Shown: positions 8,482 to 36,356 of the stretch, in pieces | Layout of the letters: the number at the start of each line of letters is the position of its first letter | How positions within the stretch are numbered: the stretch's first letter is position 1 | Origin: a virus | Taxonomy: Duplodnaviria; Caudoviricetes | Virus record (IMG/VR): IMGVR_UViG_3300042922_000648 | Coordinates: 1 to 40,012 of that record | Length of the DNA stretch: 40,012 bases | Direction: 5' to 3' (one strand) | Translations under genes and position numbers: made by a program | Notes under the pieces: model-generated | Told to the model about the DNA's origin: nothing | The model's database searches: none | The model's input: the letters and a program-made list of their open reading frames with translations, nothing else

Positions 8482-9729
8482 ATGGCGACATTCAGGAAAT
8501 TAAAAAGCGGTAATTGGCAAGCTCGTGTTTCAAAGGATGGCGAAGAATTTAGCATAGGCACATTCCGCACAAAAAAAGAAGCTGAGATTGAGGCCGGGAA
8601 AGTCGAAGAAAGAATATATTACGGCCAGACACTAAATGATCGTAACATGCTATTTGAAGAGGTGGCCAAGCAGTGGATAGAACATAAAAGTTCCAATTTG
8701 AAGGATTCGACTTTCGCACAGGTAGAAGTCATCATTCGGCTGCACATCCTCCCGTATTTTGGCAAAAAAAAGATAATGGCTATACGCCGTGCTGAAATTA
8801 AAAAGTGGATACAAGGTTATGTTGATAAGAAAGACAAAAAAGGAGAACCCGAGTATTCATTCGGCTCCTGTCTAAAGTATCTCTCAGTAATGAAAAGCAT
8901 TTTACACTATGCCGTATATGAACTTGAGGTGCTTGAAAAAAATCCGGCAGATAAATTAAAGGTTCCCGTTAAAGATTCAACTGAAAAGAAAGAAGAGGTG
9001 AAATATTTTACTTTAGTGGAGTTGAACAAATTACTCGATTATATGAAGGGTTACAAACATCAACGTTTCGAGGATTATCCTATCTATTACACACTCATGT
9101 ATTTTTTAAGCCAGTCAGGATTACGGATCAGCGAAGCATTGGCACTAAGATGGACCGATCTAAAAGGCGATAAAATAACTATTGAAAGACAGACAAGTAG
9201 AGATAATAATAACAATCTCAAACTAACAACATTAAAAAATACATCATCATACCGCACAATCCGTTTGGACGAAGATGTGGTAAATGCATTAAAAGAATTC
9301 AAAGTGATCCAAGAAAAATTTATTCAGGAATACGATACTTTCCATGCTAATAAAGACAACATTATTTTCCATAATTATCTAGGTAATTATTTGACTCCGG
9401 CAACCACTCGCGAGTCAATTCAGAGATACTGTACCGAGGCAGGAGTCAAATACAAAGGAACACACGTATTCCGGCATACTCACGCAGTTTTACTCCTTGA
9501 ATCAGGCGCAAGTCTTGTGTTTGTATCCAAGCGACTGGGTCACAAAACAATAAAAACTACAGCCGACACTTACTTGTCTATAACGCAAAAAATAGAAGAA
9601 GACGAACTTGATAAGTTCGCCTCCTACACTAAAAGAAAATCCGAATCGGCACAAAATCGGCACGATGATAAAATCCCCTCAGAACAACTCCCCGAAAACC
9701 CTGATTTATCAAGGGTTCCGCAGGTTTAG
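8482..9729 (+). CDS. int: Tyrosine integrase
   Basis: Arm-binding N-terminus MATFRKLKSGNWQARV; catalytic GLRISE, LK, HVFRHTH, LGH, TY; GGAGG RBS. Confidence 0.96.
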   Translation: MATFRKLKSGNWQARVSKDGEEFSIGTFRTKKEAEIEAGKVEERIYYGQTLNDRNMLFEEVAKQWIEHKSSNLKDSTFAQVEVIIRLHILPYFGKKKIMAIRRAEIKKWIQGYVDKKDKKGEPEYSFGSCLKYLSVMKSILHYAVYELEVLEKNPADKLKVPVKDSTEKKEEVKYFTLVELNKLLDYMKGYKHQRFEDYPIYYTLMYFLSQSGLRISEALALRWTDLKGDKITIERQTSRDNNNNLKLTTLKNTSSYRTIRLDEDVVNALKEFKVIQEKFIQEYDTFHANKDNIIFHNYLGNYLTPATTRESIQRYCTEAGVKYKGTHVFRHTHAVLLLESGASLVFVSKRLGHKTIKTTADTYLSITQKIEEDELDKFASYTKRKSESAQNRHDDKIPSEQLPENPDLSRVPQV

Positions 9730-9879
9730 CCTATACTGCCTTCCATCTCGAATTTGATGGACTACGTTTATCACAGTATATATTATAATAGAAGGAACAG
9801 CTTATTACAGCGGTTTCTTCTATTATACCTCTCATGCTATATCACAGCTTTTCGTGTTATATCGGCACGAAATCGGCAC
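9645..9879. other. attP: core 9726-9758 encodes the SufB C-terminus, flanked by arm-type repeats
   Basis: Minus strand 9758-9726 reads IKFEMEGSIG*; ATCGGCAC pairs at 9645/9656 and 9861/9872. Confidence 0.85.
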
Positions 9880-9891
9880 GCTTTGCGTATG

Positions 9892-10267: not shown

Positions 10268-10498
10268 ATGGCACTCCATCAAGGGAGCTGCCTGCTGCCA
10301 GGTATTCGTAAATCTCGGAAAAAGACACAAGCACAGGTTTGTGCTGCCCTTAAGAAGGAATGCGGGGTTGAAATATCCCCTTCCTACTTCTCAAAGATTG
10401 AGAAGGGCATCGCACCTCTAACTACCCTACAAGCCAGGGCAATATGCATTGTGCTTGCTTGTGCCGAGGAACAACTTTACGATTATAAGCAAGACTAG
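10268..10498 (+). CDS. Small XRE-family HTH protein, convergent with the Agr-like operon
   Basis: IRKSRKKTQAQV...ISPSYFSKIEKG...ARAICIVLAC..EQLY; AGGAGG RBS; upstream TGATATAAT. Confidence 0.8.
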   Translation: MALHQGSCLLPGIRKSRKKTQAQVCAALKKECGVEISPSYFSKIEKGIAPLTTLQARAICIVLACAEEQLYDYKQD

Positions 10499-10718
10499 GC
10501 AGCGGGCTGGAGCAGTTGTGCTCCCCCATGATGCGAATTTGAATAATGCACGAAACAACTAAAAAAGTCAATAATGTTTCAACGGTTGATAACATTTCTA
10601 ATTTAACTCCATTTATAGTAAAATGTATAGTTTAACTCGCATCCTTAAACGGGATATTCGACACCATAATTCGACACACACAATACCTAATGTGTGTTAT
10701 ACTGGTAGTTTCGCAAAC

Positions 10719-10753
10719 AAAAAGCGACCTTTTATACATGAGGTCGCTTTTTT
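10719..10753. terminator. Bidirectional terminator after the LytTR gene
   Basis: AAAAAGCGACCT/AGGTCGCTTTTT. Confidence 0.8.
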
Positions 10754-10754
10754 G

Positions 10755-11117
10755 TTACGCGTATTCAATGGTGTGCGAAGCTTTTCTTTTAATTACTTTA
10801 ATGCGATCTTCAGCAAATGGACAAAATTTCCCTTTTCTATCATTTGAAAAATAAGCCCGATAAAAAAACTTGTCCACTGACTGTATCGCATCTACGTTGA
10901 TAACCCCTATCCTATCAGCGCGAATGAAATTGTATCCATTAAGCTTAAAAAGGTCCAACCAGTATACTAATGTGCCTACGGTATAGTAAGTGTTTGACTC
11001 AGTATGCACAATAATTCTTTTCGCGGAGCGTAGATATTCAATAAATAAAATCTGATTAATAGAAATAGAGGTTAACCCACCGCCGTTGATTTCTTCTGTC
11101 ACTGATATTGTCTGCAT
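10755..11117 (-). CDS. Stand-alone LytTR DNA-binding protein (no receiver domain)
   Basis: ILFIE...KRIIVHT...YYTVGTL..W...FIRADRIGVINVDAI; start MQTIS at 11117 with GGAGGT RBS; 120 aa. Confidence 0.85.
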   Translation of the reverse strand: MQTISVTEEINGGGLTSISINQILFIEYLRSAKRIIVHTESNTYYTVGTLVYWLDLFKLNGYNFIRADRIGVINVDAIQSVDKFFYRAYFSNDRKGKFCPFAEDRIKVIKRKASHTIEYA

Positions 11118-11128
11118 AAGTACCTCCA

Positions 11129-11248
11129 CTACAGCAATTCTTCAGGCACTTCCCCTTCATATACATATAAAAGGCTTGCTGTGCCAAGCGATCCTAGAGC
11201 AACAACTGACAACAATGTTGCAACCAAAGATAGAGCGCGACGTTTCAT
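11129..11248 (-). CDS. agrD: AgrD-like cyclic peptide precursor, 39 aa (not in ORF track)
   Basis: MKRRALSLVATLLSVVALGSLGTASLLYVYEGEVPEELL*: basic/hydrophobic leader, TAS-x4-Y core, acidic E-x-P-EEL tail; directly after agrB with AAGGGGGTG RBS. Confidence 0.88.
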   Translation of the reverse strand: MKRRALSLVATLLSVVALGSLGTASLLYVYEGEVPEELL

Positions 11249-11251
11249 TAT

Positions 11252-11773
11252 TCATTTCACCCCCTTCCAAGAAATTAACGTAAGACCTTGAACCAAGAAG
11301 CACATAGTTAGTGTTGTTGATTGAAATAAAAAGCCACTGGACACAACTACTACAGATAGTATTTTTAATAAAGGGTAATATTTTCTCGGTATACGGTTTT
11401 GCCGTCTAATTCTAGCTGGCGCATATACCAAATATAAAATCACGCTCACTACATTGAAGATATGAATGTATAGTAGATCCAGTTGCATCAGGGAAAGTAT
11501 TGTGAATGTAGTCGTTGTAGCCAAAACACACTTCATCCCTGATTTCAAATGAATGCCTCCGGAAATCTGCCTTATAGAGGCAAAAACAATCAGTAAAATT
11601 AATGTTTCCTTAGTCCTGCCCGTTATAAATGATATAAGCAGTGTTCCTAATATGATGAACGCTGTGTTAAGAACAATAGCGAGAGAATACTTAAGTACTG
11701 CCACTGAAGCCTTATGATCGGGAATGTTTCGTTTAATCTTCTCTGCCAAACTTAAAGCTAAGTCCTCAATCAT
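11252..11773 (-). CDS. agrB: AgrB-family peptide maturation protein
   Basis: FASIRQISGGIHLKSGMKC (R-xx-SGG-x-H-x6-C catalytic His/Cys), YAPA motif, multiple TM segments; start MIEDLA at 11773. Confidence 0.92.
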   Translation of the reverse strand: MIEDLALSLAEKIKRNIPDHKASVAVLKYSLAIVLNTAFIILGTLLISFITGRTKETLILLIVFASIRQISGGIHLKSGMKCVLATTTTFTILSLMQLDLLYIHIFNVVSVILYLVYAPARIRRQNRIPRKYYPLLKILSVVVVSSGFLFQSTTLTMCFLVQGLTLISWKGVK

Positions 11774-12395
11774 CTTCTCTCTCCCTTTTAAAAGAGTAGT
11801 GCAAGAAAAACATGGAAAGCAGGAAAAAGACAAGGATATTCGTATAGATTTCTTTGTAGTAGAGCAGGACAGATATGCCTAATAAGAAGCCAATAATAAT
11901 TATAGTAAGCACTATATCTTCAGACTTAAATCGTAATTTCTCAAATTCAAAATTGAATCCCTTACCCATATGATAGAGAAAATAAGCTCCGACTATAAGA
12001 ACAGCAGCGCTAAGCACCTGTAGCAAATACCCATTTGCGAGACTGCCATCTATCGCACTGATCGACCCAAAAAATATTAGGACAATACAAGTCTGCGTCA
12101 CAGCAAAAATTGCATACCCGGCGATTGTGGCAAGTAATGAAAATATCAGTGGAAGCTTTACCACAACTGTAAAGAAAATTGTAAATAACATAATGCTGAT
12201 TAAAGGAGCAACGTTTGCCATGGATAAATCATTTCTCAAAAAGTAACTTTGAAGGTTCATCAAAAGAATGAAAAACAGAACTTGCCAGGCATACCAGCTC
12301 CACTTAAACCTAAACAAACACATTATTAAAAAGTACATAGAGAAAGCCTCGATTGTTGAAAAAAACATAAAGCCTACCGGTTCCAACGACAACAT
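11766..12395 (-). CDS. Polytopic membrane protein (~7 TM), candidate peptide receptor; AgrC sensor-like but no kinase domain
   Basis: About 209 aa, almost entirely hydrophobic helices; ends shortly after the last TM; its stop overlaps the agrB start. Confidence 0.7.
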   Translation of the reverse strand: MLSLEPVGFMFFSTIEAFSMYFLIMCLFRFKWSWYAWQVLFFILLMNLQSYFLRNDLSMANVAPLISIMLFTIFFTVVVKLPLIFSLLATIAGYAIFAVTQTCIVLIFFGSISAIDGSLANGYLLQVLSAAVLIVGAYFLYHMGKGFNFEFEKLRFKSEDIVLTIIIIGFLLGISVLLYYKEIYTNILVFFLLSMFFLHYSFKREREDD

Positions 12396-12504
12396 GCAAC
12401 ACCGCCTGACATAATTTTCATTCAATAGGTTAATTATATAACTGCTCCAGGTATATCGTATACTACTTATTTACTATGAAGTAGGCCTATCAGGCGGCGA
12501 TATC

Positions 12505-35691: not shown

Positions 35692-36246
35692 CTACAGCTC
35701 GAAATCGTCTAAAGCATCGTCTAAGGTGTCCTGGTGGATGCCTACATACCTCAAAGTCACGCTTTCTTCTGTGTGGTTGAACAAATCCATCAGTAACACG
35801 ATGTCCTTCTTTTCATTGTAGAAGTTGTACCCGAAGGTTTTTCTCATGGAGTGCGTACCGATATCCGGAAGGCCGAACTCAGCTGCAGCCTCGCGGATGA
35901 TCTTATAGGCCATGCTGCGGGTGATTGGCTGTGGCTTCCGGCTTCCTTTTCGGTTCCTGCTGGGGAATAGCAGATCTCCATCCCTTTTGTTGGATATATA
36001 TACATCCAGGTCTTTGCGGAGCGCCTTGCGGATTGGAACTTTCTTGACCTTCCCTGTTTTCTGCTCCCGGATTGTGATATGTGTCCCTTTAACGTCCAGT
36101 ACCGTGAGAGGAAGAATGTCTGAGATGCGGTAGCCGGTATTGATTCCGATTTGAAATAAGATGTAATTACGATGGCTTTGACTCCTTAGGTGTTTTTGAA
36201 TCGAAGATAGCTTCACTGGATCTCGAATCGGTTGGACAAATTTCAT
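35692..36246 (-). CDS. Small tyrosine recombinase (catalytic domain only)
   Basis: MKFVQPIRD; GINTGYRISDIL, EQKTGK, GTHSMRKTFGY, FNH, TLRYVG. Confidence 0.92.
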   Translation of the reverse strand: MKFVQPIRDPVKLSSIQKHLRSQSHRNYILFQIGINTGYRISDILPLTVLDVKGTHITIREQKTGKVKKVPIRKALRKDLDVYISNKRDGDLLFPSRNRKGSRKPQPITRSMAYKIIREAAAEFGLPDIGTHSMRKTFGYNFYNEKKDIVLLMDLFNHTEESVTLRYVGIHQDTLDDALDDFEL

Positions 36247-36356
36247 CAGTCTAGCACCTCTCAAATTGATTTTTAATAAAAGCAAAAAAGCGCCAGACTT
36301 GGCGCATCATAAGTGATAAAATTTGAGAAAAACCTACCTTTTGGAGATGATATCCT

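Follow-up and report, generated by a model that had tools for sequence, protein, structure and literature searches.

A kinase-less agr-like cassette that joins a predicted stand-alone peptide sensor to a LytTR-only protein, in a temperate phage and in bacterial chromosomes

How might an agr-type peptide signal be passed across the membrane where there is no kinase to carry it? The question is raised by a four-gene cassette in the virus record IMGVR_UViG_3300042922_000648 (Duplodnaviria; Caudoviricetes), whose 40,012 nucleotides (nt) we analysed in full and call the window: it encodes a seven-helix membrane protein (M), the peptidase AgrB, the peptide precursor AgrD, and a protein consisting of a LytTR domain only. 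Among the peptide quorum systems of Gram-positive bacteria agr is the main one, and its signal goes through a kinase in the papers considered; here, agr peptide machinery and a sensor module occur without one. We found the cassette to be agr-like on its signal side, and to lie outside both canonical agr and the LytTR regulatory systems (LRS). A direct relay from M to the LytTR protein, if real, would add a new route for carrying a peptide signal through the membrane and could serve as a compact, orthogonal tool.

A four-gene operon and its spread

The cassette (~1.7 kb in all) is an operon of four co-oriented minus-strand open reading frames (ORFs), listed here in order of transcription with their predicted promoter and terminator (aa, amino acids):

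12433..12462, minus strand: predicted operon promoter, TATACG, 18 nt, TATAAT (non-consensus -35)
11766..12395, minus strand: M, predicted stand-alone seven-helix peptide-sensor module, 209 aa, kinase-less
11252..11773, minus strand: AgrB peptide-processing membrane peptidase, 173 aa from ATG (PF04647, E 1.8e-21)
11129..11248, minus strand: AgrD precursor, 39 aa (TIGR04223, 32.3 bits, cut-off 19)
10755..11117, minus strand: LytTR-only protein, 120 aa (PF04397, E 1.2e-8)
10712..10759, both directions: two-way terminator-like hairpin ending the operon (19-nt inverted repeat, T runs on both strands)

A sequence-only reading of the window had described four coupled genes, an M ending just past its last helix, an AgrB with an intact H-x6-C motif, an unannotated 39-aa ORF as AgrD, a LytTR protein lacking a receiver domain, and a genome without kinase or receiver domains. 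Our analysis bears out each of these points. The last 8 nt of M are shared with agrB, a gap of 3 nt separates agrB from agrD, and the LytTR gene has a ribosome site that overlaps the agrD stop; this gene starts from an ATG behind GGAGG, and a GTG at 11129 would give 124 aa. The M model ends 7 residues past helix 7, H75 and C82 are present in AgrB, and a Pfam scan of the LytTR protein returned PF04397 only, with no receiver domain. Searches of the whole record with HATPase_c, GHKL and Response_reg gave no match at E<=1, a record-wide negative qualified by the record's IMG/VR class (direct terminal repeats) and completeness value of 65. The same promoter layout precedes M in 20 of 133 loci, almost all of them from the window's clade, and a repeat-period scan for direct repeats in this region showed no clear period. 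A search of sequencing runs for the cassette listed one DNA dataset and no RNA dataset.

M is present in 83 of 121 family genomes and 102 of 151 order genomes (about two thirds), and the exact order M-agrB-agrD-LytTR occurs in 115 of the 179 distinct M ORFs in the fetched loci. These loci were selected by M and the gene profiles were built from them; within 2.2 kb downstream of 175 full-length M copies we counted 141 LytTR-only genes, 153 agrB and 154 agrD, with all three present in 121 cases. Cultured phages Emery, Abouo, Davies and Harrison have the same four-gene order, the fourth gene matching LytTR (in two of the four, over the Pfam cut-off). Many cassettes are chromosomal, near housekeeping genes (tdk, polA, serS, rsmD, prkA). 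Phages, or loci with integrase, recombinase, holin, lysin, YolD, UmuC or LigD genes, make up ~39 of 172 by eye on the locus map, a lower bound since 32 loci are only 3.6 kb long. Phage and chromosomal copies are intermixed in the M tree (this and all other trees were made with FastTree and are of unsure root). From this mixture and the family-wide spread it follows that the cassette is a bacterial module that phages also carry, and a mostly chromosomal one; these data do not support the phage-specific, arbitrium-like role first proposed for it, and we found nothing that links it to lysis-lysogeny control. In L166, L178, L179 and L183 the order is altered, with agrB ahead of M.

Purifying selection acts on each of the four genes: dN/dS lies between 0.03 and 0.24 across nine locus pairs (33 of 36 values computable), and between the window and L038 it is 0.04 for M, 0.13 for agrB, 0.09 for agrD and 0.16 for the LytTR gene. 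The cassette is therefore intact and no decayed copy, although some loci show frameshifts or lost genes.

The sensor module and its predicted peptide

M by itself belongs to no family in Pfam or NCBIfam. It matches PHROG_15604 (membrane protein) at E 7.8e-8, and its AlphaFold model (pLDDT 79, pTM 0.78) has seven long helices. Fold searches with this model found nothing at E<=0.001 in the Foldseek PDB and viral libraries and a best Z of 7.3 in VIA; a profile search of solved structures gave no significant match, and an Atlas search led to unnamed clusters only. M has 459 relatives at E<=0.001, the best 150 of which are all <=242 aa, and a Pfam scan over 150 M sequences revealed no family common to more than two of them and no LRS inhibitor family. 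A first search for longer, fused forms found none, missing kinase-fused copies later found in the order sample; the long M open frames of the family sample (three inspected) are upstream extensions, with no kinases.

The kinase-fused copies are six proteins of 452-469 aa, from three genomes, in which the M domain (E 1e-33 to 1e-40) is joined to a histidine kinase. Their operons run from a REC-LuxR response regulator through one or more M-kinases to agrB and agrD. They take up six of the 150 places listed (of 291) in the order sample and none of the 150 listed in the family sample, and they form one clade within the short-M family, whose neighbour in the tree is a short M from the same genome; their kinase is not of AgrC type. 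The sequence-only reading had named, among the findings that would undo it, homologous loci that normally carry full-length AgrC/AgrA, which would make this a decayed copy; these counts speak against that. The fused loci (L237:8134-13399, L238:8031-11509, L239:4766-7719) face a second AgrC-like kinase and have an agr layout without AgrA.

Full-length seven-helix AgrC-like kinases stand head-to-head with the cassette at seven loci. Of three that were compared with the staphylococcal AgrC model, two match it over the membrane part, far below cut-off, and the sensor family of these head-to-head kinases occurs in 8 of 151 order genomes. Compared with a second AgrC-like sensor family, the M profile aligned over 139 columns with a probability of 74% (E 2.8e-5), and its score of 39.6 exceeded the <=23.5 reached by controls (reversed, AgrB, 40 block shuffles). 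With 10 AgrC-like sensors the probability was 3%, rising to 74% only with 18 sequences, all of them AgrC-like sensors. Because M is found fused to kinases beside agrBD and matches an AgrC-like sensor family, we identify it by homology as the sensor module of agr-type kinases. The earlier proposal that M is the peptide receptor gains from this kinship, and M is probably the receptor for the cassette's peptide. VirS offers a tested precedent as a seven-helix receptor of an AgrD peptide, in the part of that report covered (PMC7492741).

Judging from charge, M should have its N terminus outside and its C terminus inside the cell. Its most conserved residues are polar ones of the outer half (E16, S50, R54, Q101, Q126) together with a cytoplasmic G-F-x-F loop; the former would suit a peptide pocket and the latter a docking site.

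On the peptide side, AgrB residues R68, G73, H75 and C82 are spaced as R70, G75, H77 and C84 of the S. aureus enzyme (read from sequence; PMC10196373, covered in part), and the catalytic motif R-x3-GG-x-H-x6-C is present in 139 of 146 proteins, the other seven retaining the His and a nearby Cys. The window's AgrD consists of a leader, a core with Ser at the ring position and an acidic tail ending P-E-E-L-L, and most of its relatives have Ser or Cys four or five residues ahead of a Q/N-P-E-x-P-E-E-L tail. It is very probable that AgrB produces a peptide from AgrD. We favour, with rather less assurance, a five-residue Ser lactone S-L-L-Y-V as that peptide, from the predicted ring S25-L-L-Y-V29 (11162-11176). 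By a rough pattern, the ring residue of 151 precursors is Ser or Cys in 124, Lys in 19 and unclear in 8, and peptide cores are highly varied among relatives. M clades track peptide classes, as operon co-inheritance alone could produce. The supplement of PMC12180512 lists related precursors as uncharacterised, and the portion of it examined held no match to the window's own core; the orphan AgrD peptides of plant-associated Paenibacillus gain in M a candidate receptor.

Lys takes the place of Cys or Ser at the ring position in L004:4513-4641, L002:4527-4643, L162, L169, L173, L181 and the L048/L138/L144 clade. These precursors are accompanied by intact AgrB proteins (several with H-x5-C) and might form a lactam ring. 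Such sister clades, if the putative chemistry is real, would close the ring on lysine.

A kinase-less trio of membrane protein, AgrB and AgrD was reported in Brevibacillus phages Davies, Emery and Abouo by Hargreaves et al. (2014) (PMC3901668). Like the window, these phages encode a membrane protein without HATPase, AgrB and a putative AgrD, in the same order and beside an integrase, and the M proteins are related; unlike it, they have Lys where the window's AgrD has Ser, and their fourth gene is annotated as hypothetical, goes unnamed in the sections of the 2014 account covered, and matches LytTR in our scan. Beyond that remark we found no published description of the four-gene unit, its LytTR gene or its mechanism in a literature search that covered subscription journals and supplements thinly.

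The AgrB catalytic residues, AgrD layout, seven-helix sensor and LytTR domain are shared with canonical agr (S. aureus agrBDCA, C. perfringens AgrBD with VirS/VirR, and P. polymyxa). In contrast to these systems, the window's receptor has no kinase domain and its regulator no receiver domain, the peptide is a predicted Ser lactone rather than a Cys thiolactone, and the LytTR protein has its own D-R signature. The P. polymyxa locus makes Pp-AIP, a Cys peptide, and is drawn with AgrC and AgrA in the parts of the reports covered (PMC12180512; PMC13700820); PMC4909266 nowhere mentions LytTR, and names AgrB in a legend only. The agr3 locus of the Clostridioides phage phiCDHM1 likewise lies between endolysin and integrase in the order sensor, agrB, agrD, but its AgrC keeps the kinase and it has no LytTR gene; M did not match the phiCDHM1 sensor in a single-sequence comparison.

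The sequence-only reading had called the cassette a hybrid with LRS (HdrRM, BrsRM; Zou et al., 2018), which are defined, in the sections of that paper covered, by promoter repeats (PMC6193735). Both encode a membrane protein together with a receiver-less LytTR factor and do without a phosphorelay, but the cassette has an M of agr-type sensor lineage, a dedicated peptide and peptidase, and another gene order. The 9-bp direct repeats (11-13 bp apart, 4-11 bp upstream of -35) are absent from the window (best 4/9), and the mean repeat score over the 94 of 133 promoters that were placeable, at predicted positions, was 4.64, as compared to 4.74 in shuffles. We therefore set the hybrid aside. With arbitrium the cassette shares a phage-borne peptide, its processing and a receptor; the parts are unrelated, the receptor here is a membrane protein and the cassette is mostly chromosomal.

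Relay to the LytTR protein and competing explanations

The LytTR protein is modelled with high confidence (pLDDT 96.8) and has the LytTR fold. Its family profile matches AgrA chains at E 6e-12, AgrA being the best solved match, and its subfamily carries the signature D-R where AgrA has H-N. LytTR divergence tracks the predicted cytoplasmic half of M (0.42) over the outer half (0.16), most strongly at loops 3 and 5. Random splits of M equal this bias in 2-6% of 150 trials, and the effect stays (0.20) after thinning to 59 clusters. In partial correlations over 116 complete loci, the peptide core tracks M (0.26) and AgrB (0.29) but shows no tracking of LytTR (0.05). A prediction of the M-LytTR complex from paired alignments scored 0.02 against a mark of 0.32. 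The covariation between M and LytTR is suggestive only; taken with gene order, it puts direct coupling of the two proteins just short of an even call.

We propose the following course of events. AgrB likely processes AgrD into a small peptide ring closed by serine; outside the cell this ring is likely bound by M, the stand-alone sensor, which would hand the signal, without phosphotransfer, to the receiver-less LytTR protein by contact, probably through the cytoplasmic loops of M; and the LytTR protein then likely alters transcription in the lysogen. The complete chain, from peptide through M and LytTR to transcription, seems to us slightly less than evenly balanced. For its core, a phosphorylation-free relay in which a seven-helix receptor would itself hold or let go of a bare LytTR factor, we put the odds somewhat below even.

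A number of observations weigh against this proposal. Of the three base-contact positions of AgrA, the subfamily conserves just one, the equivalent of N201 (R, 90%); around R233 it is acidic as often as basic; and its median net charge is 0, with +4 for the window's protein. One contact position of three, the D-R signature and the neutral median together make DNA binding doubtful, and we lean towards it by a small margin only. LytTR matches picked away from M (37, chosen among 150 listed of 173) were stand-alone, with no M nearby, in 35 cases and ordinary response regulators in two. Conversely, 23 of the 175 M copies are followed by agrBD without a LytTR gene, three of those loci stopping 1.5 kb downstream. 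The peptide core tracks the inner half of M (0.23) at least as closely as the outer (0.15), which does not support covariation of the core with M's outer loops. That LytTR follows M more closely than AgrB did not reach significance (bootstrap difference 0.135, interval -0.02 to 0.27), pairs in these correlations are not independent, and the halves of M were set by the charge-inferred topology. AgrC-like kinases lie downstream of the cassette at one locus and NarL-type regulators follow the LytTR gene at two; together with the seven head-to-head kinases, these neighbours mean that phosphorelay partners may act in trans. We found no experiment on any family member in print.

The strongest competitor builds on those neighbours: M would bind the peptide but signal through a host kinase in trans, or tune AgrC-like kinases as partner or decoy, while the LytTR protein would have a role of its own, for instance as a competitor of an AgrA-type regulator of the host. 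Its appeal is that the head-to-head AgrC-like kinases lack a regulator of their own, that M is homologous to kinase sensor modules, that NarL-type regulators and stand-alone LytTR genes occur as described, and that Hargreaves et al. (2014) had suggested for phiCDHM1 a relay to a host regulator (PMC3901668, covered in part). Yet in most loci the fetched DNA contains no such kinase, LytTR divergence follows the cytoplasmic segments of M, and M and LytTR are kept together in 15 loci without an intact agrB; we regard this competitor as unlikely, though worth serious attention. A role in which the peptide mainly jams other agr systems or marks kin, with M as a sink or immunity-like binder and extra M copies binding foreign peptides, would account for the 6 of 20 fetched loci (L268-L272, L279) where one agrBD-LytTR unit is surrounded by 2-8 kinase-less M paralogues in tandem, for genome G147 with as many as 20 M matches, and for the varied cores. 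Single cassettes prevail, however, a sink would not need a conserved regulator gene in its operon, and M retains the conserved cytoplasmic G-F-x-F loop, which leaves this role improbable.

Hardly better placed is an arbitrium-style circuit through which the phage counts lysogens to set lysis against lysogeny. At least four temperate phages in culture and many prophages do carry the cassette; in the window it adjoins attP and the integrase, and in close phage loci it is followed by a convergent XRE gene and a promoter-like site. Against this stand the chromosomal position of most copies beside housekeeping genes, the mixing of phage and chromosomal copies in the M tree, and the lack of any recurring LytTR-type site near the repressor region; that temperate phages use a phosphorylation-free relay to count lysogens and time induction is, by the same token, improbable. 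Least credible by far is a non-working agrCBDA that has lost its kinase and receiver domains. A kinase-fused M does exist, and some loci have frameshifts or gene losses; but selection maintains all four genes, hundreds of distant M relatives end at the same place, and the fused forms are a single clade inside the short family, with a non-AgrC kinase and a LuxR-type regulator. The direct relay keeps our preference; its output would more likely be some trait of the host or lysogen than the switch between lysis and lysogeny.

The phage setting and neighbouring genes

The window belongs to a temperate tailed phage: a Pfam scan of 50 ORFs identified terminase, portal, tail, holin, integrase and repressors. 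The cassette is located between the lysis genes and attP, with the integrase nearby, and has a G+C content of 36.9% as compared to 44.2% for the record. The region between lysis genes and attP is the usual site of lysogen-expressed genes. This position, the predicted promoter and terminator of its own, and the low G+C make it most likely that the phage carries the cassette as lysogenic cargo, which may serve as a further channel for phage-host or phage-phage communication. The features between integrase and cassette are as follows:

9645-9664 and 9861-9880: 20-nt arm-like repeats flanking the attP core
9726..9759, plus strand: predicted attP core, a copy of the host sufB 3' end, with matches in 3 of 5 Paenibacillus-type genomes
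10268..10498, plus strand: small XRE-type helix-turn-helix (HTH) gene, convergent with the cassette (HTH_31/HTH_3 matches below cut-off)
10601..10676, minus strand: two TGTCGAA sites and a promoter-like site facing the convergent XRE gene

The attP core (34 nt) follows the integrase, and the host ORF end that it matches scores as SufB. From this match and the flanking repeats we take attP to be intact and the host to be probably a Paenibacillus. A prophage region in genome G002 has a similar attP-like site ~1.8 kb from its own cassette, and a second, short integrase-family gene (197 aa) lies at 35692-36285 of the window, upstream of the terminase genes.

The XRE gene accompanies the cassette in close relatives, with related DNA in four of five other aligned loci and an intact ORF in L038. 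Past the terminator, TGTCGAA is invariant in all six aligned loci (the window, L038, L021, L023, L039, L041), and promoter-like sites lie there too; the convergent small XRE gene is found in five of the six. An antisense transcript from this region (window 10268-10676) is possible. TGTCGAA, which resembles a Spo0A box, occurs <=300 nt downstream of the cassette in 30 of 132 loci, as compared to 31 of 491 other genes, with kin loci kept in; over the whole record it is not enriched (4 found, 5.5 expected). A TATAC-type pattern, derived from its own two sites, occurs twice in the record, once on each side of the cassette. The sequence TCAGGCGG stands at 12402-12409, in the M ribosome site, and inverted at 12490-12497, upstream of the promoter; the record holds five copies against 0.7 expected, the pattern having been picked after it was sighted.

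Chromosomal copies have neighbours of their own. The gene prkA accounts for nine of the scanned genes upstream of stand-alone LytTR genes, and some genomes hold the whole cassette at the prkA site; the stand-alone genes there are probably remnants of it. Those directly after prkA (L192, L196, L198, L203, L204, L206, L210, L213, L214) are of the D-R type. Chromosomal cassettes also lie a few kb from spo0A-spoIVB (L145, L149, L153, L157) and at prkA-spoVR (L134, L151, L152), neighbouring genes from which a tie to sporulation is possible.

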